A DNA stretch of 64,000 nt from Anolis carolinensis (Eukaryota). Below are positions 2,707-62,038 of the stretch, one piece after another. Both the position numbers and the translations under genes were made by a program. Each line of letters begins with the position of its first letter. Position 1 is the stretch's first letter. Location of the stretch: assembly GCF_035594765.1 (NCBI RefSeq), contig NC_085844.1, forward strand, positions 160,658,107 through 160,722,106, in the 5' to 3' direction. Under the pieces are notes generated by a model. It had not been told where the DNA came from. It was given only the letters and a program-made list of their open reading frames with translations, and did no database searches.

Positions 2707-3086
2707 CCCTTCACAGCGGGGAGGAGGCGTCTCTTCTCTCCTCCTTTCCAAAGCCAGCCTCGGTGCTCCTTCGGCGGCAGGCCTCGAGCCGCAGAGCACG
2801 AGGTGCTTGAAAATTTGGCGAAGTCGCCATTTTGGCAGTTTACGTCACTCGGGCAAGGGAGGTATCAAGTGGCAAGTTGCTGTCAGTTGACATTTTGCAG
2901 CTTGCCCACCAAAGTCTGGCGCCAAAGGTCACAATCTTTGTAAAGTATAGTTACTTAGTGATATATATTGCTATGGTTAAGTGCTGTGAATTGTATTATA
3001 TATTGAATTTGCTTTTATTGTAAATTTACTTGCAGGTATATTGCATTTGCCTTTGTTGTAAATTTACTTGCTATTAAGAATACATA

Positions 3087-6000
3087 ATGTCTATGCAATT
3101 CCAAGATGATACAGATGGTATACCTCCTTCTGAGGCTGAAGGTAGGAATGAAAGGCCCCAAAGGATAAAGCACCCTTCAGCCAAGATGCTAGCCCATCTA
3201 ATAGATGAAAAGGAGCTCCTCCATGTGAGGTTAGGTTCGGCATGGGAGCGAATTGTAACATTAATGGACAGAATAGAGAGCTTGGGTATCACAAGGGTGC
3301 CAGCCATATTACAGACAGACCTCGAAGAAGCCTTCGGTCTTTGGAGGGGTTTAGTGTCTAAGATAGTCCAGGTCCTCGAGCGCATTAACGCCAAGGATTC
3401 AGAGTTAGAAATAGGGAGTGTTTTAGCTGACACTAATGAGAAAGAAAATAGGGTGAGGGCAATCCTAGCTTCCTTATGCAGCCATGAGACCAATCTTTTG
3501 AAATCACCTGCTGTGGCACTTAGTCTTAAGTCCAACCGCTCTAGCCAGGTATCTAAACTAAGGGAGCGTGCATCGTCTAAACACAGCCACTCTAGCAAGT
3601 CTTCTGCTGCTGGGAGTGCCATCTCTTCCCTAGCTGCCTTGCACATTAAGGAGGCTGCACGTCTGGAGCTAAAGAGCAAGGTAGCGGGGGCGGAGGCTGA
3701 TGCTAAGGCAGCTGATCTCACCCTTCCCTTTAAAGAAGAAGAGCAACGACTGCAAATAGAACAGGCCCGTAGACAAAGCGAAATGCAAATGGAACAGGCC
3801 CGTAGACAAAGCGAAATGCAAATAGAACAGGCTCGTATAGAGATGCTTAGAATAAAGATGGATGCCGCAGCCAAAAGGGTAAGGGCTGAGACTTTGGCCA
3901 AGGCCCTAATTGAGCCACTCACAGAAGAATATGTAAGCCAGTTACCAATACAGGACCCTTCTGCCAAAGTGTTTGCGCACCTTGGCAGCATGTACAGTCA
4001 GTTTTCGGATAAGGAACAGGGAGACTTCTCTCCTTACCCAGAGCAGGGCCCCAAAGTCACTTTTGAGTTTCCTGCAGAGCAGAGCGTCATAGCGGGGAGC
4101 TCACCCTTGCTCGAGCTACCTGTGCCTCCTGCTAAAACCCTAGGTCAGTCAATCAGGGCCTCAAGGCCGAGTGCTAGTTGGCCCCTACAGACAGCTGCAC
4201 AGGGAACCATCGATTCGTCAGTGGTCGATGTCATCCCTCCAAGAGGCCAAAGGTTGACGCAAGGTACACGGTGGGAGTCCACTCCACAACAGCAAACTCC
4301 TCAATTGTTCCCTTCGACGCCGGAGTCCCAGCTTGTCTCCATCATCAGAAGCCCCAGAAGAGATCTTAAGGACAAGGGTGTCGAAAAGTTTTCGGACAAG
4401 CCTGAGGAATTTCTTCTCTGGAAGGCCACCTTCCAGAGAGCAATCAGAGACTTAAAGTTATTGCCTGAGGAAGAACTGACTCTTCTGGCTGCATGGTTGG
4501 GCCCAGCCTCATCCTCACAAGTTAAGAAGATCTACGCAGCCCACGTAGCCGATCCCGACAAAGCCCTGGAAAAGGCCTGGGCCAGGTTGCAGCAGAGGTA
4601 TGGGGCCAGTACAGAGATTGAAGCATCTCTTATGGACAAGCTCCAAAGGTTCCCAGCTTTAAAACTCAAAGACTTCAAACTCTTGTGGGACCTCAGCGAT
4701 CTCCTTGCGGAATTAGAGTCGGCCAAGGAGAATCCAGAACTGCCCGGTTTGAAGTGCCTCGATCAGCACCTGTCCCAGAGGCAGATCTTGACCAAGCTGC
4801 CCTTCACTTTGCAAGAACGCTGGGGACAGGAGGTCTTCAACTACAAGGAGGCCCACTCCCAGGCATACCCTCCATTTTCTCATTTGGTCCAGTTCATCAC
4901 CAGGGCAGCCAGAGAAAGGAATGATCCACAGACGGGCCTCCCCACCTTATACCAAGGGACCCAGCCAGAGAAGGCACCTGAAGTGGACAAGAAACCACCT
5001 AGAGAGGCCAATAGACCTGTCAGCGTAAAGGCAGTCGAAACTCAACACAAGACTGACGAACCCAGGTCGGAGGTAAAAGAGTTGCTTTGCCCTATTCACC
5101 AAAAGCCTCACAGCTTGGCCAACTGCAGGGAGTTTAGTAGAAAGACATACAAAGAAAGGCAACAGCTAGTTCAAAGGCAGGGAATCTGCTTTAGATGCTG
5201 TGGAGCAACTCCACACTTTGCATCCAACTGCAAAGAAAACATCAAGTGTGAGAAATGCAACAGCCTCAAGCATTGCACCGCAATGCACAACTCCAATATC
5301 ATCTCCCACCCCAAAGAGAACGCTTCACCAAAAGAAAAGTCAGCAGTCGAAGACACCGACAAGCCAGCCGCACCAGAGATGCAGGTGGAAGTTTCAGCAG
5401 TCGCCTGTACAGAGCTGTGTTCTGACTCACACCAGTACAGAGTTTGTCATCCTATCTGCCTAGCGGATGTATATCCAGCCAAGAGCCCTTGGCTTAGAAA
5501 GAGACTCTATGTGGCCCTGGATTCACAGAGCGACGCCTCCCTAGCTACTCCAGAGTTCTTCCGCATGTTTGACCTTAAAACCAAGATGGTCAATTACACC
5601 ATGACTACATGTGCAGGAAAAAAGAAGTTGCAGGGTCGCATAGCATCTGGCTTTGTTGTCTCCTCTTGCGACCAGAAGAGACAGTTCAAGTTGCCAGACC
5701 TGATTGAGTGTTCCTCCATCCCTCGGAACAAAAAACAAATTGTAACTAGAGAAGTTGTGGAGGCTCATCCACACTTGCGAAGGCTGAAGAACGCCTTACC
5801 TGCTTTCCGTCCAGATGTGGACATTGCCCTTCTGCTTGGTGCGGACTGTCCGAACTTGTTCTATGTGAACGACCAAGTTAAGGGACCTCCAGGGGCGCCC
5901 ATTGCTCAGCTGCTACCACTAGGCTGGACAGTTACAGGCCCAGTGTGCATAAATAGGATGCACCCTCCATCGTCGGTGGGCACTCGTCAAGCGCATGTGC

Positions 6001-7235
6001 TTCAAGGTAGTCGCCCCACACTAATGCATAGCTGTTTGAGTCATATCTCGGTCTATTGTCAGGGGATAACTCCAGAGTATTCCTCCACCTTCAAAGTCTC
6101 TGAGAGAGACGAAGCCATAGCGCTCTCGAAAGATGAGCAAAGGTTTTCGGACATTATGAATGCTCAAGTCTCACGAAGTGCAGAGGTGAAAGCCTGCAAA
6201 TCAACCACAGAAATCAAGATGGGCCAACGATCTTGTCTGGAACCACACCGTTTTGAACGTTTTTCGGAGTGGCACAGTCTTCTTAGAGCAGTTGCTAGGC
6301 TTATACATCGCTTAGTCTGCAAAGATAGTCAGCCTTTGCAAGTTCAGGATATGTTGAAGGCTAAGGGAGTAATATTCAGGTCAGTTCAGAGGCATGAGTT
6401 TAGTCTAGAAATAGCCAAGTTAGAGCAAGGGCTCAACATCCCTAATCAAAGTCTTCTAAATGAGTTAAACCCATTTCTAGACAAGGAGGGTATTTTGAGA
6501 GTTGGAGGAAGGTTAGCCAAAGCTAAACTCAAAGTGTGTATAAAGAACCCCATCATTGTACCCCCCAATAGCCATATTGCTTTGCTGTTGGTTCGTCACT
6601 ACCATGAGAAAATCCATCATCAAGGTAGAACTCTGACTGAGGCGACCCTTAGAAATGAAGGCCTGTGGGTGGTAAATGCTAAAAGTTTGGTCAGCAGTGT
6701 TATTTTTAAGTGTGTCAAATGTCGGCGACTCAGACGTAACTGTCAGAGTCAGCTGATGGCTGAGTTACTTCAGGACAGGACTTTGACAGACCCCCCCTTT
6801 TCCCATGTGGGAATCGATGTGTTTGGTCCTTGGGAGGTTGTCACTAGGAAAACCAGGGGTGGTGTTGTAAATAACAAAAGATGGGCGGGTTTGTTTACTT
6901 GTTTGTCAAAACGAACTGTCTATATAGAGGTTGCAGAGGGAATGGACACTTCATCATTCATAAACGCATTGAAAAGGTTCATAGCCCTCAGAGGGCCAAT
7001 TAAGTTAATTTGGTCGGACTGTGGCACCAATTTTGCATGTGCAGACCTTAGCCAACCACTTCTGGAAGAGGTGGAAGGCCGAATACTTAAGCCAGCTTCC
7101 AACCAGAAGACTCTGGCAAACCCCAGAGGACAATTTCAAGGTGGGAAACCTTGTGTTGCTAAAGGACAAAGACTTGCCCCGCTATGCCTGGCCTATGGGC
7201 ATTACACTAAAGACCTTTCCTTGCCCGGACGGTAA
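3087..7235 (+). CDS. BEL/Pao Gag-protease-(RT/RNase H deleted)-truncated integrase polyprotein
   Basis: 1382-aa ORF: Gag core (KFSDKPEEFLLWKATF), three zinc knuckles (CPIH..H..C; CFRC..H....C; CEKC....H....H), protease ALDSQS, integrase HHCC and GIDVFGP / WSDCGTNF. No RT YxDD or RNase H motifs. Last ~66 aa are out of frame. Confidence 0.88.
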   Translation: MSMQFQDDTDGIPPSEAEGRNERPQRIKHPSAKMLAHLIDEKELLHVRLGSAWERIVTLMDRIESLGITRVPAILQTDLEEAFGLWRGLVSKIVQVLERINAKDSELEIGSVLADTNEKENRVRAILASLCSHETNLLKSPAVALSLKSNRSSQVSKLRERASSKHSHSSKSSAAGSAISSLAALHIKEAARLELKSKVAGAEADAKAADLTLPFKEEEQRLQIEQARRQSEMQMEQARRQSEMQIEQARIEMLRIKMDAAAKRVRAETLAKALIEPLTEEYVSQLPIQDPSAKVFAHLGSMYSQFSDKEQGDFSPYPEQGPKVTFEFPAEQSVIAGSSPLLELPVPPAKTLGQSIRASRPSASWPLQTAAQGTIDSSVVDVIPPRGQRLTQGTRWESTPQQQTPQLFPSTPESQLVSIIRSPRRDLKDKGVEKFSDKPEEFLLWKATFQRAIRDLKLLPEEELTLLAAWLGPASSSQVKKIYAAHVADPDKALEKAWARLQQRYGASTEIEASLMDKLQRFPALKLKDFKLLWDLSDLLAELESAKENPELPGLKCLDQHLSQRQILTKLPFTLQERWGQEVFNYKEAHSQAYPPFSHLVQFITRAARERNDPQTGLPTLYQGTQPEKAPEVDKKPPREANRPVSVKAVETQHKTDEPRSEVKELLCPIHQKPHSLANCREFSRKTYKERQQLVQRQGICFRCCGATPHFASNCKENIKCEKCNSLKHCTAMHNSNIISHPKENASPKEKSAVEDTDKPAAPEMQVEVSAVACTELCSDSHQYRVCHPICLADVYPAKSPWLRKRLYVALDSQSDASLATPEFFRMFDLKTKMVNYTMTTCAGKKKLQGRIASGFVVSSCDQKRQFKLPDLIECSSIPRNKKQIVTREVVEAHPHLRRLKNALPAFRPDVDIALLLGADCPNLFYVNDQVKGPPGAPIAQLLPLGWTVTGPVCINRMHPPSSVGTRQAHVLQGSRPTLMHSCLSHISVYCQGITPEYSSTFKVSERDEAIALSKDEQRFSDIMNAQVSRSAEVKACKSTTEIKMGQRSCLEPHRFERFSEWHSLLRAVARLIHRLVCKDSQPLQVQDMLKAKGVIFRSVQRHEFSLEIAKLEQGLNIPNQSLLNELNPFLDKEGILRVGGRLAKAKLKVCIKNPIIVPPNSHIALLLVRHYHEKIHHQGRTLTEATLRNEGLWVVNAKSLVSSVIFKCVKCRRLRRNCQSQLMAELLQDRTLTDPPFSHVGIDVFGPWEVVTRKTRGGVVNNKRWAGLFTCLSKRTVYIEVAEGMDTSSFINALKRFIALRGPIKLIWSDCGTNFACADLSQPLLEEVEGRILKPASNQKTLANPRGQFQGGKPCVAKGQRLAPLCLAYGHYTKDLSLPGR

Positions 7236-50694: not shown

Positions 50695-52631
50695 AGGGGT
50701 CTTATAGCTCTGGATATTTACACAGGAAGTGCCATGTGTCCCTTCAAGTGTTTTTGAAGATGTTCATGACCAGAGTCACTGGGTTGCTGTGAGTTTTCCG
50801 GGCTGTATGACCATGTTCCAGAAGCATTCTTTCCTGACATTTCTCATTCTCACTGCATTTGGGGGCGGGCACCAAATTTCTGTTTGCTTACACTTGAAAA
50901 TTATCTAGGGTCAGCCCTGTCTGTCAGCCAAATGTTTTATCAATTTCCTGTGCTTCGAAATGACAATCAAAATGAGCCAATCTCTTTCTTCAACAGGCCA
51001 CATGGACATTTATAATTCTATAAGATCACCATTGATGTCCTAGATCAGAAGAGCACATTGATACAATGCTGGTTTCAATCCTAATCTTGAACTAAACACA
51101 GTAACTACAATCCCTTAATAAGTTCTTTTGGTTAAACCCCACCAAAAAGAATTGAGATTTGTACAAAAGTGCTATCCTATTTTTTTGCAAATCTCACAAT
51201 TTGAGAAGATATTTCTAGGTGAATATGTTAAGTGACTTGATCCCTTTGATAAGAAATAAGACCCCCTGTGAAATGGCGATAAATCAATATACGACTTCCA
51301 ATGAGTGATTCCATACAAGCCCCTACCTTTCTTCATGTATTTATTCCCATAAATTAGAATTGGGACATATGTAAATATTTATATTTAGCCCTTCCTATAT
51401 AAATACTAGTGTTAAAAAATAGAAGACATCCATTCAATTCTTGACTGGCCTATAAGAAAAAAAAGACAATAAAGAAATAAAGGAAAGCACCTGATTTAAT
51501 TTTTCTCAATAGACAATGTCACTCACTCACATTCCTAAAGATATGTCCTTCCGGGCTGTGAAAAATACAACAGTTGCCATGTAATTATAATGTTTTATTA
51601 ATAATTGCATTCATTGCTTCAGGAAAATTGTATTTCTGTCTCAAATATGTCAACATTATAAAGTCAGACAACTTTTCAAGGTTTTTAAAGAAAAATATAT
51701 CATGTTGAGTAATGAAACAAAGCAGAGATTTCATTGTTCTGTGATATTATTTTCCATCTTTGAAAACAGGTGGATGAAACATTTTTTTGAGTGTCTTTTT
51801 TCTGAAAGCTAACTTCTGCAGACAATCTAGGCAGGGAAAAATTGATAGTCTACCTGATATATTCTGCTACCACAGTATATAAGTTATAACATTACATTAG
51901 AAATGTTTGTACATGTATAAAAACAGGACAAGTGAATTTGATTGTTTCATATTCTATAAAGTTCCCCATTTTTCATGTGTAGTTTCATTCTGTCCCAGTT
52001 CCACATAAGTTTACAATTTCTTTAAGTCCATACAAAATTCTGGAAGCCTCTTTACATGCCATTTCCCCTGATTTATGCATTTTTGAATACAGTTCACCTG
52101 ATAAGAAGCACATTTCTCTGCAATTTTTGGAACAGCATCACAAGATTTGGAAAACTGTGAAAAACAAAAGATAAGTGTGTTCTGTTTGATACATGGGCTC
52201 AGGCATCAAGAATTGGAACATTCTCTATTTGAATTCAAATACAAAGTGTGTTTCTGTTTCAACGTTAATAATCTCCCCCTTCCTTACATATAAAGCATTG
52301 TCCTATTCAATAATATTTGTTATTATACTATTAAATTTTTGATAGATGTCTTGGCTCAGTTTCAGTAGAGAGGGCATTGCCTGGAATATTTTTTTGGCTG
52401 ATTATCAGGAAGCAATGTGAATTTAGTACCATTAGAAAGGCCAAATTTTGCTGGGAAACTATTGTAAAAGATACTGGCATAGATAGATACAGCTTTCACT
52501 TTTTAAAGGCTTCATTTTACCATCTCCTGTGTTAGAAGTGGCACAAATTGTACTGCCATTTTTTAACTGGTTAGTCTCATTCCAGGGCATTTACAGTATT
52601 AAAAAAACAGAGGCAGATGGTGCAGTTAGAT

Positions 52632-52766
52632 CAGTGGTTCTCATCCTGTAGGTCCCCAGGTATATTGGCCTACAACTTCCAGAAATCCCAGCCAGTTTAC
52701 CAGCTGTTAGGATTTCTGGAAGTTGAGGGCCAAAACATCTGGGGATCCACAGGTTGAGAATCACTG
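52632..52766. mobile_element. hAT MITE (135 bp)
   Basis: TIRs cagtggttctca / tgagaatcactg; 8-bp TSD AGTTAGAT. Confidence 0.9.
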
Positions 52767-52909
52767 AGTTAGATAGAGTTTGGACTTAAGATTAAAAACT
52801 CCCTTCTCCATAGATTTGGGTGGGAATTTCTGCTGTATCAGTTTTAACACTAGAAACACATGTGCAAAGTGCCATCCCATCGCACAAATGACTTCCCCTT
52901 TGGTTAGAT

Positions 52910-53045
52910 CAGTGGTTTTCAACCTATGGGCCCCCAGATGTTTTGGTCTTCAACTCCCAGAAATCCTAACAACTGGTAAAATTGACTGGGATTTCTGGGA
53001 GTTGTAGGCCAAAACACTCGGAGACCCACAAGTTGAGAACTATTG
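52910..53045. mobile_element. hAT MITE, same family, opposite orientation
   Basis: TIRs cagtggttttcaac / gttgagaactattg; 8-bp TSD GGTTAGAT. Confidence 0.88.
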
Positions 53046-54688: not shown

Positions 54689-54826
54689 AAGAAACTTCCC
54701 CCCACTGCACAGCTGGGGGAGGGAAGGGGATTTGCCCCCTCCCAACGAAGGAGAGACTTCTGGAAGGGGGGCGGGGCTTCTAGGAAGCTGCCCGCCTCTT
54801 AGATCACTCACTTTTGGAGCTTCGAC
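54689..54826 (+). repeat. Ngaro repeat A1 (138 bp)
   Basis: Identical by eye to 61320-61457; contains a GC box. Confidence 0.95.
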
Positions 54827-55526
54827 GTGAGAGGATCCAAGAGTGGGAGCTCCTGTCCCTTGGTGCCGAGGTCCAGGAGGAGAACGTCGAGGGAGATTTA
54901 TCCCCTTTTTTCATCTGTTTATACTACTGCTTTGAGGTCTGTATAGGAAGGGAGAGAGGCTGAGGCAGGGGAGCCAGGGTTGGCCTTGGCTGCTGCTTGG
55001 CTTCTCCCTCGACGTCATTGTGCCTGGTAATGTTAAGAATTTGTTTGGAAATTAATTTGCTTCCCCAGTTCTAAGGGGTTTTGGGCGGAGGAGGGTGCGT
55101 GCGGGGCCCTCGCGCCTCTTCTCCGTTCCTCCCTTCTTCCTTTGCATGGTCCTGAGCCATGAGTGTGAAGGTGTAGGCGGGGGCTTTACTTTTGGGAGAT
55201 ATGGGGATGATGTACCTTTTTTCCATGTTTAAGTTGGCTTTATTTATTGTGTAATTTTATTTGGATGGTATGAATGATGAATTGGTTGTTTGGGTTGCTT
55301 TTTGATTTGACGTTTGGGAATGGAAGCTATGTGGTAGGGTCGCCATTTTTATTACCAGTCTTATGTAGAGGTGTTGCTGGGCAGATTGGCTGTGTTTGTG
55401 GCGCGAATTCCCTGTTGCTGGGCAGATTGCCATAGCCGTTTGTGTCGGTTCTGTGAATTTCGCGCTCTTTTTGCTTGTAGTTTGCCGCGGTTTTTCCTTG
55501 GGCAGCCATGTTGGTTGCCAGGTTGG

Positions 55527-55725
55527 GTGAGGGCTGGTCAGCCATTTTACTTGTGGGCATGGGCAAGTGTTTGCGGCGGCCATATTTGTTAAGGGAATTA
55601 GGCTGGAAAGGACGGGCGCCATGTTGAGTGAGGGCTGGTCAGCCATTTTACTTGTGGGCATGGGCAAGTGTTTGCGGCGGCTATATTTGTTAAGGGAATT
55701 AGGCTGGAAAGGACGGGCAGCCATT
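55527..55725 (+). repeat. 101-bp tandem duplication in the Ngaro leader
   Basis: gtgagggctggtcagccattttacttgtgggcatggg... starts at 55527 and again at 55628. Confidence 0.9.
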
Positions 55726-56431
55726 TTTGTAGCTGGCATATTAAATAGTACAATGGTGGCCATTTTGTTGATCGGTCGGCCATCTTTGTTAAGGGAATGG
55801 CAGCCATTTTAGGTGCTTCATGGCAGCCATTTTACAGAACGTTTTTTAAGGGATTCTAATGGCGGTGGCCATTTTTAATTTGGGCATACTCACATTGCAT
55901 TGGTTTAATGCTATAACAATTGATGGTATTGACTGATTGGTTTTTAAAAATACAAATGGATTATTAGTAATTGATTAGATGGTTCAAGTTAAGTCATTGA
56001 TAATGTATGGAGATTAATTAATTCATATGTATTTATGGTGGCTGATTAATTAATGAATTGATATTGGGGTTAATTGATTAATATATTTAATTAATTTCAT
56101 GGGGTAATTTATTTAATATGCTATTGAGGACAATAAATTAATGAGATTCTCTATATAAATTGGGGTATTAACTTATTGAATTAATTTTAATATCATGTTT
56201 ATATAGTAGGTGCATATCAGTGTGTGGTATTGTATGCTTTAATTAAATGGATGCTTGGTTGCTTTTGATTTAAGAAACGTTAGTCGCTTCGGGTCCCTTG
56301 GCTTGGATAGGGTAGGGAGTTGGCTCATTCTAGTTTCTGCCAGCCCCTCCCCCCCCCCCACTTATTTGCTACTGAACTTTCTTCCTCAATATTAACTTTT
56401 CGTGGTCTTACTGAACTTCTTATTTTGCAGT

Positions 56432-57784
56432 ATGCCACCGAAGAAGAATGTTGGGGGGCCTAAGGGCAAGGGTCCTGCGAAGAAGATTCCAGCAAAGCGC
56501 CCGCCTCCACCAAGTGGTCCTTCAACCGAGGATGAAGACTCTGCACAGTTGTTGGGAGTGTTGGTCGCCCGGATCGAGGCACTGGAAAGAGAGAAAGCAG
56601 CGGCTGCTGCTGCGGAGGCGCAGAAGGCTGGTGGGGGCAGTAACACCGGGTTAATTAGGTCCTTATTTTCCCGTATTTCTGCCTTAGAAGGGGAAAGGAG
56701 TGCTGCAGTGCCTGTCGCTGATGCGAGCCTGGTTACATCTACGCCGGTGACCGCTGAAGCTGTTCCATCTACTTCGGCGGCAGCAGCTGAGATGAGAAGT
56801 GCCGTATCCGCTTTAGGTAAAGGGGACACACACACCTTCCCTTGGGGAGTGGCAGACTCTCAAGATCTTATCACAACCCAAGCACGTGACGAGCCTGTTC
56901 CATCAACCAGCGGCACGCAATTAGCTATCGTGGCTCCGGTGGTTGAGACACCAAGCGTGGTGGTAGCCTCTTTGGATTCAACACCTACTATTGAGAATTC
57001 TTTGTGTTTTTGGGGCACGGCTGATTGGCCTTTGCCGGCCTCCGATAGCCTTAGTGCTACAGCTTTAGGCTCGCATTTGGCTCAAAAGACAATTGATAAA
57101 ATTTTAAGGAATGAATACATCGACATTTTTACCCTGTATTTCAGGGAACTTGATAAGAAAGAAAAAGATGATTTAGATGATGAAAGAAAGGAAATTATGA
57201 AAAAACGCAAAGTGGACCAGAATTGGGGCAATTGGTTCTCTTGCTTTTTAATTTACGGAGGGGTTCTAGTGAAGGCTTACCCTTCCAGAGCCCATTCTCT
57301 TTTTCAGTACATGAACATTATCAATTCAGCTTATGTAAATTTTACAGGTAGCGCTTGGCTCTTGTATGACAAGCGCTTTAGGCTTCGTGCGGCTCACTCT
57401 CCAACTTTGCGCTGGGATTTGATTGACCATCAGCTGTGGTTGGAGGTTCTAACTCCGGCACGTCCCATTGCGGGCGAGAAGGCCGACAGTGGGCACACAA
57501 TTCAAAATTCTCGAGCTGGGCAGTCCTTTCGTCAGCATCCATATTCCCAGTATCAGCAACCACAGCAATCTCAACAACGCTTGCTATGCTGGGAATATTC
57601 TTCGCAGGGAGTTTGTTCCCGAAGAGGTTGCAAGTTCCAGCACGTTTGTGCCATCTGTTCAGGGCAACATTCTTCCAAATTTTGCAGTAAGGGAAAACCT
57701 GGTAAGGGTGGGGGAAAGAGTAACCACGATCCCAGGAGAGGTTTCGGCTCAGGTGGGTTTTCCAAAGGGGCCCAGCCCAATTAA
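56432..57784 (+). CDS. Ngaro ORF1, Gag-like protein
   Basis: First ATG gives MPPKK; basic N-terminus, coiled-coil-like RIEALE / RISALE, AWLLYDKRFR, C-terminal CCCH/CCHC finger CWEY....CSRRGCKFQHVCAICSGQH....C. Confidence 0.88.
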   Translation: MPPKKNVGGPKGKGPAKKIPAKRPPPPSGPSTEDEDSAQLLGVLVARIEALEREKAAAAAAEAQKAGGGSNTGLIRSLFSRISALEGERSAAVPVADASLVTSTPVTAEAVPSTSAAAAEMRSAVSALGKGDTHTFPWGVADSQDLITTQARDEPVPSTSGTQLAIVAPVVETPSVVVASLDSTPTIENSLCFWGTADWPLPASDSLSATALGSHLAQKTIDKILRNEYIDIFTLYFRELDKKEKDDLDDERKEIMKKRKVDQNWGNWFSCFLIYGGVLVKAYPSRAHSLFQYMNIINSAYVNFTGSAWLLYDKRFRLRAAHSPTLRWDLIDHQLWLEVLTPARPIAGEKADSGHTIQNSRAGQSFRQHPYSQYQQPQQSQQRLLCWEYSSQGVCSRRGCKFQHVCAICSGQHSSKFCSKGKPGKGGGKSNHDPRRGFGSGGFSKGAQPN

Positions 57785-59359
57785 TCTAGTTCAGTTAGAT
57801 TTGTGGTTATCCAGTTATCCCAATTTAGGCGCAGCTAGTTATCTGCGTGCTGGGTTTTTTGAGGGTTTTAGGATTCCTGCAATGGGACATAGAGCTCCTT
57901 TCAGGGCACCGAATCTGAAATCCGTTATTGGCATGGAGGACGTTGTCCTTGCTAAAATCAATAAGGAAGTTGCAGAGGGTAGGGTTCTTGGCCCATTTAG
58001 GTCTCCTCCCACTCCTAGGTTAAGGGTTTCACCATTAGGGATTGTTCCAAAGAAGGCACCGGGGGAGTTTCGACTCATTCACACCTTTCCTATCCCAGGG
58101 GAAGGTCAGTGAATGACGCGATTCCTGATGATTTTTGTACAGTCCACTATACTTCTTTTGATTTGGCGGTTAGGAAAGTGAGATCTAGGGGGCCGGCGGC
58201 AGAATTGGCAAAGTGTGACATCAAGTCTGCTTTCCGGCTACTGCCTGTACATCCGCTGGACTTCGAGCTGTTGGGTTTTCAGTTCAAGGGGTTGTACTAT
58301 ATGGACAGGGCTCTTCCCATGGGCTGTTCAGTTTCCTGTGCTGCTTTTGAGTCCTTTAGCACCTTTTTGGAGTGGGCCCTTAAATCAAAATCGGGTTTAT
58401 CGGGGGTTGTGCACTACCTGGATGATTTTTTATTTATAGGGATGTCTGGTTCTGGAGAATGCGAATTTCTTCTGCATTCTTTTCAGGAACTGGCCGATCA
58501 GTTAGGGGTTCCCTTAGCCCCCGATAAAACAGAGGGCCCGGCTACTAAATTGACCTTTTTGGGGATTGAGCTTGATACAGTGCAGCAAGCCTCCAGTTTA
58601 CCTAGGGAGAAAGTTTTTAATCTAGTAGATAGGATTCGAGCTTTTGTTACCCGTAACAAGGCCACATTGCGGGAGTTTCAGGAGCTTATTGGGCATTTAA
58701 ATTTTGCATGCAGAGTCATAGCTCCTGGGCGTCCTTTTTTGCGCAGACTCTGCGATGCTATTTCTGGGGTTAGACTTCCGCACTATCATGTGCGGATTAC
58801 ACGTGGGATCAAAGCTGATTTGGACATTTGGTTACAATTTTTAAATCAATATAATGGGATTTCCTTTTGGAGACAGGATCTTTTGTTGAAGGATGCTCTT
58901 CAGATAGCTTCTGATGCTTCTGGAGCCATCGGCTTTGGTGTATTTTTTAATGGGCATTGGTGTGCCGAGCTTTGGCCCAGGGAGTGGCACACCAAGGGTA
59001 TAACGTCCGATTTAACATTTTTGGAGTTTTTTCCAATTTTGGTGGCTGTCACGCTGTGGGCTGATCAAATGACAAATTCCACCGTTCATTTTTGGTGTGA
59101 TAACCAGGCTACGGTGCAGGTTATCAATTCTTTAACATCTAAGTCAGTCAGACTGATGGAGGCTTTGAGGTTTTTTACACTCCACTGTCTAAAGTATAAT
59201 ATACTGTTTAAAGCTTTTCATATTGCAGGGACAGATAATTCTCTCGCTGATGCTCTGTCCCGTATGCAGATGGATCGCTTCAGGCAGCTTGCCCCCAGCG
59301 CAGATTTGCACCCCCAGAACATGCCGGTCCATCTTTGGAAAATTGGGAACAGTCCATAG
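57765..59359 (+). pseudogene. Ngaro RT-RNase H with a 1-bp frameshift near 58082
   Basis: VSPLGIVPKK..FRLIH, KCDIKSAFR, LPMG, HYLDDF; RNase H SDAS, LEF, CDN, ADALSR. Adding one C restores RLIHHLSYPRGRSVND. The start is approximate (frame is open from 57468). Confidence 0.9.
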
Positions 59360-60249
59360 TCCGGGGAATGAAGTTGGCTTTGGCCACGACTTCCAGAAAA
59401 TCTTACGTCAGAGCGGTGCAGGAGTTTCATGAGTTTAAAAAGTTGTATGCCATAAGTTCTGTTTCACCGATTCCATATGAGCACGTCGCACAGTTTGGTG
59501 TTTTTCTGGAAAGGAAGGGGTTGGCCCCTCAAACTATTCATGCGAAATTATCTGCCCTGGCTTATTGGCTTAAGGCTCAGGGCTTTCCAGATGTTACAGC
59601 CGATTTTAGGCTTCGCAAATGGCTGGAAGGTTTGTCGCGGGAGCAGGTTAGGCCACGTGACTGCCGTCAGCCATTGACACCTGAAATTCTCAAAGGCTTA
59701 AAGCAAATTTGGCCCAAAATTTGTGAATCTCATTACGAAGCTTTGCTATTGCAGGCAGCGGCTCTCACCGCTTTCTTTGGGGCTCTTCGTATTAGTGAGC
59801 TGGTCGCCTCTTCAAAGGCTGATCAATCTAGAAGGGCCTTGCAATTTTCGGACCTGCGGCTCCAGCAGGACAAATTGGAATTGTTTATCAGGACTTCTAA
59901 AACGGATCAAAAAGGGAAGGGTTCCATTATCAAATTGGGATGCTGTAGTGATTTGGAATTATGCCCAGTTGCAGCTTTGTCATCTTTTGTGTCCTGCAGA
60001 GGAACGTCAGCTGGTTTTCTTTTTTGTCATCGGGATGGAGCACCGTTGACAAAATACCAGTTCTGGGCCTTGACTTCTAAGGCCTTAGGAATGTTGGGTA
60101 TCAAAGATCAGAAATTTGGTACTCATTCCTTTAGAATTGGGGCTGCTTCCACTGCTGCTGTTATGGGCTACTCTATAGACAAAATTAAGATGTTGGGAAG
60201 ATGGAAATCTGGTGCCTACCGTGCGTATGTGCGTCATATATCGGATTAG
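59335..60249 (+). CDS. Tyrosine recombinase (Ngaro integrase)
   Basis: GALRISEL, SKTDQ, CPV, HSFRIGAA, GRWKS, YRAY: complete R-K-HxxR-W-Y set. Confidence 0.95.
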   Translation: MENWEQSIVRGMKLALATTSRKSYVRAVQEFHEFKKLYAISSVSPIPYEHVAQFGVFLERKGLAPQTIHAKLSALAYWLKAQGFPDVTADFRLRKWLEGLSREQVRPRDCRQPLTPEILKGLKQIWPKICESHYEALLLQAAALTAFFGALRISELVASSKADQSRRALQFSDLRLQQDKLELFIRTSKTDQKGKGSIIKLGCCSDLELCPVAALSSFVSCRGTSAGFLFCHRDGAPLTKYQFWALTSKALGMLGIKDQKFGTHSFRIGAASTAAVMGYSIDKIKMLGRWKSGAYRAYVRHISD

Positions 60250-60272
60250 TTATATGGCTTTTTGTTTTTCAG

Positions 60273-60871
60273 AACCCACCCTGTTGGCAAGTAGACGACG
60301 CGTCCTGATTTGCGGGCACAGTTATGTGCACTGGGCAGAGCGACAGGCGCGCAGAGGTCCCTACGGCCAGCATTTCGGCCTCGCTTCCTTGGCTTTTGTT
60401 GAATGGAGGGGAAGAAGAGGTCTGCGGTGGGAGGGTTTGCTCCCTTTGTTGTTTGGGTCAGGGGTCCGTTTTCCACCTGACCTTATTGTTATGCATTTGG
60501 GAGGCAATGATTTGGGGCTGCTTAAAGGCAGGGCCCTTTTTCTCCAGGTTTTAAATGACATGCACAAGATCCAGGAGGTGTGGCCTTATACCGGATTGGC
60601 ATAGTCAGCAATTATTCCTAGGCCACGTTGGCCCTATGGGGACGGTAAAAAATTGGACAAAGCAAGGAAACGGGTCAATAGGGCCCTGCGGAAGGTTTTG
60701 GAAAATGGCATGGGTTACTATATCCCTCATGACACCATTAGATTCAATGATTCGACGATGTATCGGACTGATGGGATCCATCTGTCCGAACTGGGCAACC
60801 AAATTTTCTTAGCGGATCTGCAGAAAGGAATTAGGGAAATTCTTTCGAATTTGGTGGGGGTCAGGAGCTAA
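60273..60871 (+). pseudogene. SGNH/GDSL hydrolase (esterase) domain, with one in-frame TAG at 60602-60604
   Basis: Block I ICGHSYV, block III HLGGNDL, block V DGIHLS..G in one frame (ORFs 60212-60604 and 60653-60871); preceded by a polypyrimidine-AG. Confidence 0.88.
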
Positions 60872-60895
60872 ATAGACATTTGCTCCTGAACTGTG

Positions 60896-61321
60896 GCGGA
60901 ATGCTTAGGGGAATCTCTTATTTTGGTGTGCACCACAAGGCACCTCTGTTTTGGTGTTGGCCAGAGGCGTGAATCCTCGCTTAGGGTTTTTACAGCCCCG
61001 GCGAGGGTGAACGATTATGGCCTTGGAATGGGAGACTTTGACCTCATTTGTTTCGGAGGCAAAACTCTCCAACACATTCCCCTTTAGGTCATCCAGGTTT
61101 AGATAGACTGGGGACCTGGTGTTTCGCCCTAAATTCAGTCTTAATGGATGGTCGGGTATGACCACTAATATCGGCTTATGCCTTACCAAATTCTTAGATG
61201 GCTAAGGATTTTTGGCCCTAGTTCCAAATTAAAGTTAAATAGGTAACTATCAATAAAGTTGCCCAGTTTTAAACCCAAGCTTACTTGTCTTGTCTCGTTA
61301 TTTCGGAGGGTTGGAGGGCAA
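60896..61321 (+). repeat. Ngaro repeat B1 (426 bp)
   Basis: Repeated at offset 717; the ORF track shows identical 94-aa translations; contains AATAAA. Confidence 0.95.
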
Positions 61322-61457
61322 GAAACTTCCCCCCACTGCACAGCTGGGGGAGGGAAGGGGATTTGCCCCCTCCCAACGAAGGAGAGACTTCTGGAAGGGG
61401 GGCGGGGCTTCTAGGAAGCTGCCCGCCTCTTAGATCACTCACTTTTGGAGCTTCGAC
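61320..61457 (+). repeat. Ngaro repeat A2
   Basis: Copy of A1. Confidence 0.95.
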
Positions 61458-61612
61458 CCACCCGCCCGCCGCTAACAGTATAGCAGTAGTGTGGTCGCTT
61501 AGATGGGCCGGGTAGGAATTTTTTCCCTCCCATATTCTGGGAGGGTTATTCGCCTACCCTATACTGTGTGGAGTGGTAAATTGGGGGATGTGGTCATTTA
61601 ATTAGGTGGTCA

Positions 61613-62038
61613 GCGGAATGCTTAGGGGAATCTCTTATTTTGGTGTGCACCACAAGGCACCTCTGTTTTGGTGTTGGCCAGAGGCGTGAATCCTCGCTTA
61701 GGGTTTTTACAGCCCCGGCGAGGGTGAACGATTATGGCCTTGGAATGGGAGACTTTGACCTCATTTGTTTCGGAGGCAAAACTCTCCAACACATTCCCCT
61801 TTAGGTCATCCAGGTTTAGATAGACTGGGGACCTGGTGTTTCGCCCTAAATTCAGTCTTAATGGATGGTCGGGTATGACCACTAATATCGGCTTATGCCT
61901 TACCAAATTCTTAGATGGCTAAGGATTTTTGGCCCTAGTTCCAAATTAAAGTTAAATAGGTAACTATCAATAAAGTTGCCCAGTTTTAAACCCAAGCTTA
62001 CTTGTCTTGTCTCGTTATTTCGGAGGGTTGGAGGGCAA
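61613..62038 (+). repeat. Ngaro repeat B2
   Basis: Copy of B1. Confidence 0.95.

Follow-up and report, generated by a model that had tools for sequence, protein, structure and literature searches.

A 64,000-nucleotide stretch of the Anolis carolinensis genome (NC_085844.1, positions 160,658,107 to 160,722,106 of the forward strand; hereafter the window, to which all coordinates refer) carries at 54689-62038 a young Ngaro-type tyrosine recombinase (YR) retrotransposon. We propose that a phase-1 splice joins the first 128 codons of its gag gene to an exon, 3.5 kb downstream, encoding an SGNH hydrolase, that the same donor likely serves the recombinase as well, and that the shared N-terminal head (Gag-N) would recruit both proteins into Gag assemblies, a reading to which we assign a probability of roughly 0.8. 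An earlier note on this DNA, made from the letters alone, had predicted the spliced Gag-N/SGNH product, and it is now borne out by a junction in one sequencing run, by conservation of sites and phase, by the lack of any joined copy in the assembly and by annotated models in squamates. The features on which the argument turns are as follows.

56431-56816, plus strand: shared Gag-N exon with its phase-1 donor (sequence, copy alignment, RhxxhE helices)
59270-60249, plus strand: tyrosine recombinase exon with a phase-1 acceptor, AG ending at 59269 (Phage_integrase, copies, gecko models)
60254-60256, plus strand: rival in-frame ATG within the acceptor region (in frame in 16/57 copies)
60273-60871, plus strand: SGNH hydrolase exon with a phase-1 acceptor, AG ending at 60272, and a premature stop in this copy (Lipase_GDSL_2, contigs, copies)

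The gag ATG lies at 56432, and the donor TAG/GTAAAG ends the exon at 56816, after 385 nt (128 codons, phase 1). The acceptor tract of the SGNH exon ends at 60272, 23 nt past the YR stop codon (60247-60249), and the hydrolase frame picks up at 60275 (PTLLASRRRVLICGHS). The donor, the acceptor, their matching phase and the in-frame ATG at 60254 were all placed exactly in the earlier note. Pfam Lipase_GDSL_2 matched both halves of the SGNH exon, under its curated cut-off. By sequence score alone (a weight matrix), the donor ranked ninth among the GT sites in 54.6-62.1 kb, and the SGNH acceptor was tied with eight others behind three better sites. As both sites are ordinary by score, outside evidence was required.

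Four of the 24 public runs listed (X1, X2, X3 and X8) were examined, none of them recorded as RNA; contig depths were not used for ranking parts of the element. Run X1 holds two contigs across the predicted junction, which is exact on both sides. One reaches 56816 and then runs on for 16 letters that match 60273-60288 exactly; in the other, which begins at 60271, the 12 letters ahead of that position are those of 56803-56814. These two contigs overlap by 30 letters, both stopping at the polymorphic base 60289, as would be expected of neighbouring contigs of a 31-mer graph. In the assembly, the start of the SGNH exon stands behind the acceptor in 27 exact copies and behind any other base in none (joined form, 0), and an assembly search for precise intron-loss copies of this junction found none.

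RefSeq XP_062833270.1, a 327-aa protein labelled "uncharacterized", is the predicted product letter for letter at the junction: it reads ..SAVSAL-E-PTLLAS.., just as the in-frame joining ..SAVSAL-E- of the earlier note required. Its cluster has eight members from other loci or versions. Gag-N+SGNH models occur in nine squamates (A. carolinensis, A. sagrei, Pogona, Elgaria, Rhineura, Hemicordylus, Eublepharis, Heteronotia and Gekko kuhli), which cover the main squamate lineages. Among 252 proteins, gathered by searches seeded with SGNH and gag, 60 were Gag-N+SGNH, 14 Gag-N+core and 3 Gag-N+YR. In the A. sagrei model the switch falls at the homologous Gly ahead of a WPWG motif shared with Gag. 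Amphibian-type models with an N-terminal helix and an SGNH domain were found, but no tie to a Gag was established for them. Atlas searches returned unnamed or SGNH clusters only, and no published description of this splicing turned up in the literature searched (passages including those of PMC7192593, PMC9341512, PMC6681497, PMC3783388 and PMC5443660, and the abstract of PMC4495291). The Gag-N+SGNH arrangement is real and conserved, and is present in databases only as unnamed models.

Copies of the element were compared in 79 stretches, found through 39 of the 40 scored hydrolase matches, 20 gag matches and 20 diverged hydrolase matches. Only some of the candidates in these searches were scored, and the first 59 stretches plus the window were used for site counts; these copies are kin, and the counts are not independent events. 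The donor AG/GTAA was present in 47/47 mapped copies (9 clusters at 85%), with a variable exon side, and the SGNH acceptor YAG in 58/58 (10 clusters). The first exon was measurable in 41 copies and stop-free in 23, of which 22 were in phase 1 (27/41 if broken ones are counted). The sites and phase singled out in the earlier note are conserved among these copies. In a separate family (L064-L066, 52% hydrolase identity), phase 1 is shared by the best-scoring gag donor, a YR acceptor and an SGNH acceptor; 24-27 nt ahead of the hydrolase there is an in-frame stop, with no Met. Among 20 diverged loci assessed by simple acceptor scoring, the best acceptor was in phase 1 in 14; it was in phase 0 or 2 in L068, L071, L072, L073, L074 and L079, several of which are decayed.

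The acceptor AG at 59269, ahead of the recombinase exon, is kept in 60/61 mapped copies, and every mapped family has a same-phase YR acceptor at the homologous place. In three RefSeq models from the leopard gecko, the same Gag-N exon leads directly into the complete recombinase; their junction aligns gap-free, in phase 1, with the codon directly after 59269. A single residue at this junction separates two gecko isoforms, which looks like a tandem-acceptor pattern, so reads presumably stand behind the models. No conserved Met was found ahead of the first YR helix among the sequences compared, and no precise intron-loss copy of the YR junction was found in the assembly, in a search that lacked a positive-control pattern. 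Gag-N-YR is likely made from the donor at 56816. The earlier note was right about the use of this donor for SGNH and missed its likely second use for the recombinase, as well as the leader intron described below. In four models from Anolis sagrei and Elgaria (P0074, P0081, P0088 and P0090), Gag-N and SGNH are separated by a cassette of 32-50 codons taken from the beginning of the YR frame.

Several observations weigh against the splicing scheme as a whole. The junction from 56816 to 60273 was seen in only one of the four runs; its short sides of 16 and 14 letters are below the 31-letter bridge bar, and it is missing from the joint table. Run X1 is RNA by guess only, and its empty-site contig means that DNA may be present, while the contigs of X2, X3 and X8 that span the donor or the acceptor are unspliced. 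There were 140 loose contig ends beyond the 24 listed, and in the four runs neither the leader junction nor the YR junction was among the listed joints or those 24 ends. RefSeq models are predictions, and homology may have carried them from one species to another. An in-frame ATG lies upstream in each of the 12 copies whose hydrolase frame is fully open (at -21 in 7, at -75 in 5). The CAG at 59269 doubles as a Gln codon of RNase H, and the donor-to-YR junction was seen in no examined run. Finally, the Gag-N helices are modelled with a modest predicted local distance difference test score (pLDDT, about 50-70).

Given the uncertain nature of X1, with its empty-site contig, and given that internally deleted copies are common, the joined sequence in that run might come from a deleted DNA copy in the animal rather than from spliced RNA. 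We regard this as highly improbable: the borders are exactly GT..AG, the assembly is without such a copy, no precise intron loss was found in copies with both sites mapped, and an exact intron loss would itself imply splicing. That a spliced Gag-N-SGNH RNA exists is, in our judgement, very likely.

The open frames with upstream ATGs bear on a different possibility, namely that the hydrolase is translated alone from an ATG near the YR stop, by termination-reinitiation or from an internal promoter, with the splice a minor event. Here an ATG does lie 5 nt past the YR stop, and passages of a study of Xenopus elements (10.1101/2021.08.05.455354) draw the hydrolase as a fourth overlapping open reading frame (ORF). 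However, the ATG at 60254 (-21), which the earlier note offered as an alternative start and which is indeed in frame in the window, is in frame in only 16/57 copies; 11 have another ATG further upstream and 30 have none. No in-frame upstream ATG was found in L064-L066, L067 or L075-L078. In young copies, a 1-nt change in the length of the pyrimidine tract puts the ATG off frame while the exon stays open, and the junction itself was observed in X1. An own start for the hydrolase in place of the splice is therefore improbable; in the youngest subfamily, where the open frames keep such an ATG, own-start translation is possible.

The recombinase could instead be reached from the reverse transcriptase (RT) frame by ribosomal frameshifting, the Gag-N+YR models then being artefacts or minor isoforms. 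The RT and YR frames overlap, a review view quoted in passages of PMC13003380 has YR probably reached by frameshifting, no YR junction appeared in the examined runs, and there are just three Gag-N+YR models, from one species. Yet the acceptor is found in the same phase at a homologous position in all mapped families, three species have models that switch into the YR frame at that point, and one isoform pair differs by a single residue at the junction. On balance we consider frameshifting into YR rather unlikely, and splicing from the gag donor the better account.

A predicted second intron, ahead of gag, completes the scheme.

54934-54942, plus strand: leader-exon donor GAG/GTCTGT, exon ending at 54936 (copies, RefSeq XP_062827885.1)
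54937-56430, plus strand: leader intron of 1,494 nt, its acceptor 1 nt ahead of the gag ATG (copies, RefSeq XP_062827885.1)

The GT of the leader donor is present in 40/40 mapped copies (13 clusters, flanks diverged) and the acceptor YAG in 44/45, both in non-coding sequence. Unspliced contigs over this region were present in the runs, and the search for precise intron-loss copies of the leader junction gave a single match, which was a decayed acceptor. Within the intron, only some young copies carry a 101-nt tandem duplication (55517-55718 in the window). For RT, a splice acceptor was considered and found unsupported, as phase-1 candidates lie at non-homologous places among families. At 57760-57784 the gag stop and the RT start overlap alike in three families around a shared AAAGGG. 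RT is in the +1 frame there and lacks a conserved Met; this is a candidate frameshift site.

The protein predicted from the splice begins with a basic motif (aa 1-24), followed by an acidic patch, a pair of predicted helices that each carry an RhxxhE motif, and a linker. RhxxhE is found in 21/30 rows of the alignment for helix 1 and in 29/30 for helix 2, and in passages of PMC5940361 it is linked to parallel trimers. The structure model shows a confident SGNH domain (blocks mostly 73-95 pLDDT) with its catalytic set, behind two weaker helices and disordered linkers, in agreement with the layout of basic motif, helices and SGNH put forward in the earlier note. The fold matches are SGNH hydrolases, among which PDB 4C1B, the zebrafish ZfL2-1 protein, ranks 11th at 17% identity; it is also the best PDB sequence match (E 6e-4). 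The catalytic S, G, N, D and H are present in 28-30 of 30 rows, and dN (nonsynonymous divergence) is 0.13-0.52 against a dS (synonymous divergence) of 0.43 to saturated; by these comparisons the domain is under purifying selection. Its net charge is +8 to +16 in 29/29. No signal peptide or membrane anchor was found in the product, whose N-terminus is basic and whose highest 19-residue hydropathy is 1.32. Full Gag was modelled with little confidence (pLDDT 43), and a fold search with that model returned no matches.

Since the product is without the Gag core and knuckles, it might, even if the splice is real, be a regulator or decoy that limits Gag assembly or drains genomic RNA, its esterase acting on a non-membrane substrate; P elements have truncated spliced repressors. 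However, purifying selection and an intact catalytic set across families exceed what a decoy needs, and the essential recombinase also bears the Gag-N head in the gecko models. We think a decoy role unlikely, and favour a head that loads enzymes into Gag assemblies.

The scheme that we propose would run as follows: the leader exon would be spliced to the acceptor 1 nt ahead of the gag ATG, as conserved sites and an annotation model suggest; read-through of the donor at 56816 would give Gag, seen as an ORF; splicing from 56816 to 60273 (a junction in one run) would give the predicted 327-aa Gag-N-SGNH; splicing from 56816 to 59270, annotated in a gecko, would give Gag-N-YR; parallel trimers, likely formed by the two RhxxhE helices, would mix the fusions with Gag as minor subunits, with no protease or polyprotein; the strongly basic SGNH domain, its catalytic residues intact, might bind the particle to acidic membranes and serve as a low-turnover acyl esterase, by analogy with the ZfL2-1 proposal; and new copies would still be made from unspliced RNA. 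We put recruitment to Gag by way of the shared helices at about even odds, and co-assembly of the Gag-N fusion with Gag is plausible. A membrane or lipid role like that of ZfL2-1 is a tentative suggestion. Equally tentative is a broader model, in which squamate (perhaps all tetrapod) Ngaro elements use one donor and several acceptors, a trimeric Gag-N tag loads YR and the esterase in place of a Gag-Pol polyprotein and protease, and the esterase converges on the design of ZfL2-1 ORF1p and ties the particle to membranes.

In retroviruses and errantiviruses, env is expressed from a subgenomic RNA in which a 5' donor is joined to a 3' ORF, and the unspliced RNA is the genome. The lizard product shares with Env its origin from a spliced RNA and its place 3' of pol, and to that extent the "env-like" description of the earlier note holds; it has no signal peptide, anchor or transmembrane segment, retains 128 gag codons, and comes from an element in which a second acceptor likely serves the recombinase. 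The Vesta LTR (long terminal repeat) elements of bdelloids, as described in passages of PMC5408684, likewise have an SGNH esterase (GDSL ORF3) in the env position with catalytic residues intact, but ORF3 is without coiled-coil or transmembrane domains, and no Gag-N fusion appears in those passages.

The likeness to ZfL2-1 drawn in the earlier note extends to architecture: according to passages of PMC3905857, ZfL2-1 ORF1p (PDB 4C1B) has a basic N-terminal motif, a coiled-coil region and a basic SGNH domain, and the lizard product has a basic N-terminus, predicted helices and a basic SGNH domain in which the catalytic residues are intact. ZfL2-1 ORF1p is contiguous, is the sole ORF1 protein and dimerises through an antiparallel coiled coil (same passages), whereas the lizard product is spliced, stands beside a full Gag, has trimer-type helix motifs and belongs to a YR rather than a non-LTR element. 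With LINE-1 ORF1p (passages of PMC5940361) the lizard head has in common a positively charged N-terminus and RhxxhE trimerisation motifs, but it has no RNA recognition motif or C-terminal domain, and carries two short helices rather than a long coiled coil. Close to the lizard element are amphibian Ngaro elements that include a hydrolase ORF (Xenopus DIRS-53_XT and DIRS-54_XT), which in passages of 10.1101/2021.08.05.455354 likewise have split direct repeats, gag, RT/RNase H, YR and then SGNH, and no methyltransferase. There the hydrolase is a separate fourth overlapping ORF of no proven function, whereas in the lizard it is an exon joined to Gag-N; the text of that study, its supplementary ORF table aside, has no occurrence of "splic" or "intron".

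The remaining parts of the element in the window are listed here.

54689-54826, plus strand: repeat A1, the left end, beginning with the 2-nt AA core (identical to 61320-61457)
56432-57784, plus strand: gag ORF of 450 aa, the unspliced product, with a helical core and Cys/His knuckles
57774-59359, plus strand: RT/RNase H frame, frameshifted near 58080 (Pfam RVT_1, E 4e-11)
60896-61321, plus strand: repeat B1, holding an AATAAA at 61252 (repeat comparison)
61320-61457, plus strand: repeat A2 (100% identity to A1)
61613-62038, plus strand: repeat B2, the right end, closing with the AA core (100% identity to B1)

By its sequence this is the Ngaro layout described for Xenopus (10.1101/2021.08.05.455354): split direct repeats in the order A1...B1-A2-B2, with each pair (A1 and A2, B1 and B2) 100% identical, flank gag, RT/RNase H and YR in overlapping frames, and then the SGNH hydrolase. 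There is no room for a methyltransferase, as 37 residues are left past the last RNase H motif, and no such family came up in the Pfam scan. All catalytic motifs of the recombinase (R, HxxR, W and Y) are present, and Phage_integrase scored above the Pfam cut-off. There is no target-site duplication: an empty-site contig of X1 runs from 54688 straight into 62037, leaving only a 2-nt AA core. Judged from that contig, the insertion is polymorphic. AA stands at both element ends in 3/4 full copies shown, and AT/AA in the remaining one. This copy is broken by the RT frameshift near 58080 and by a stop in the hydrolase at 60602-60604, neither of them mentioned in the earlier note, so the full product cannot come from this locus itself. 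In a multi-copy subfamily (L040-L059), most of YR is lost and the hydrolase is decayed while every splice site is retained; it is likely a non-autonomous lineage.

Esterase exons were also met outside the element. Within the TSG101 gene there is an isolated, open SGNH exon behind a phase-1 acceptor (L069:6983-7561; G000:C1:269341394-269341975). It shares 78% identity with the end of a TSG101 isoform model from Podarcis muralis, and the Asp and His of its last catalytic block are lost; it resembles an esterase exon domesticated as part of an ESCRT-I protein, and no publication on it turned up in a literature search. In a tree of 45 SGNH rows this exon does not fall inside the squamate Ngaro clade. 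Other host models that end in an SGNH domain (P0086, P0116 and P0125) are DUSP12 in two geckos, whose rows are sisters in the same tree, and VGLL4 in a snake. Elsewhere in the window, 3078-7235 holds a 1385-codon open frame of gag-protease-integrase look without most of RT, which is probably a BEL/Pao-type element, and 52625-53045 holds two adjacent short inverted-repeat elements resembling miniature inverted-repeat transposable elements.

How the overlapping, Met-less downstream ORFs of YR retrotransposons are expressed finds a concrete answer in the conserved splice from gag, and the real proteins for biochemistry become Gag-N-SGNH and, likely, Gag-N-YR. The spliced product would account for dozens of "uncharacterized" lizard RefSeq proteins. 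Two unrelated classes of retroelements would have arrived at the same combination of basic motif, coiled coil and esterase, and the ready-made phase-1 acceptor suggests a route by which host genes such as TSG101 may capture the esterase exon.

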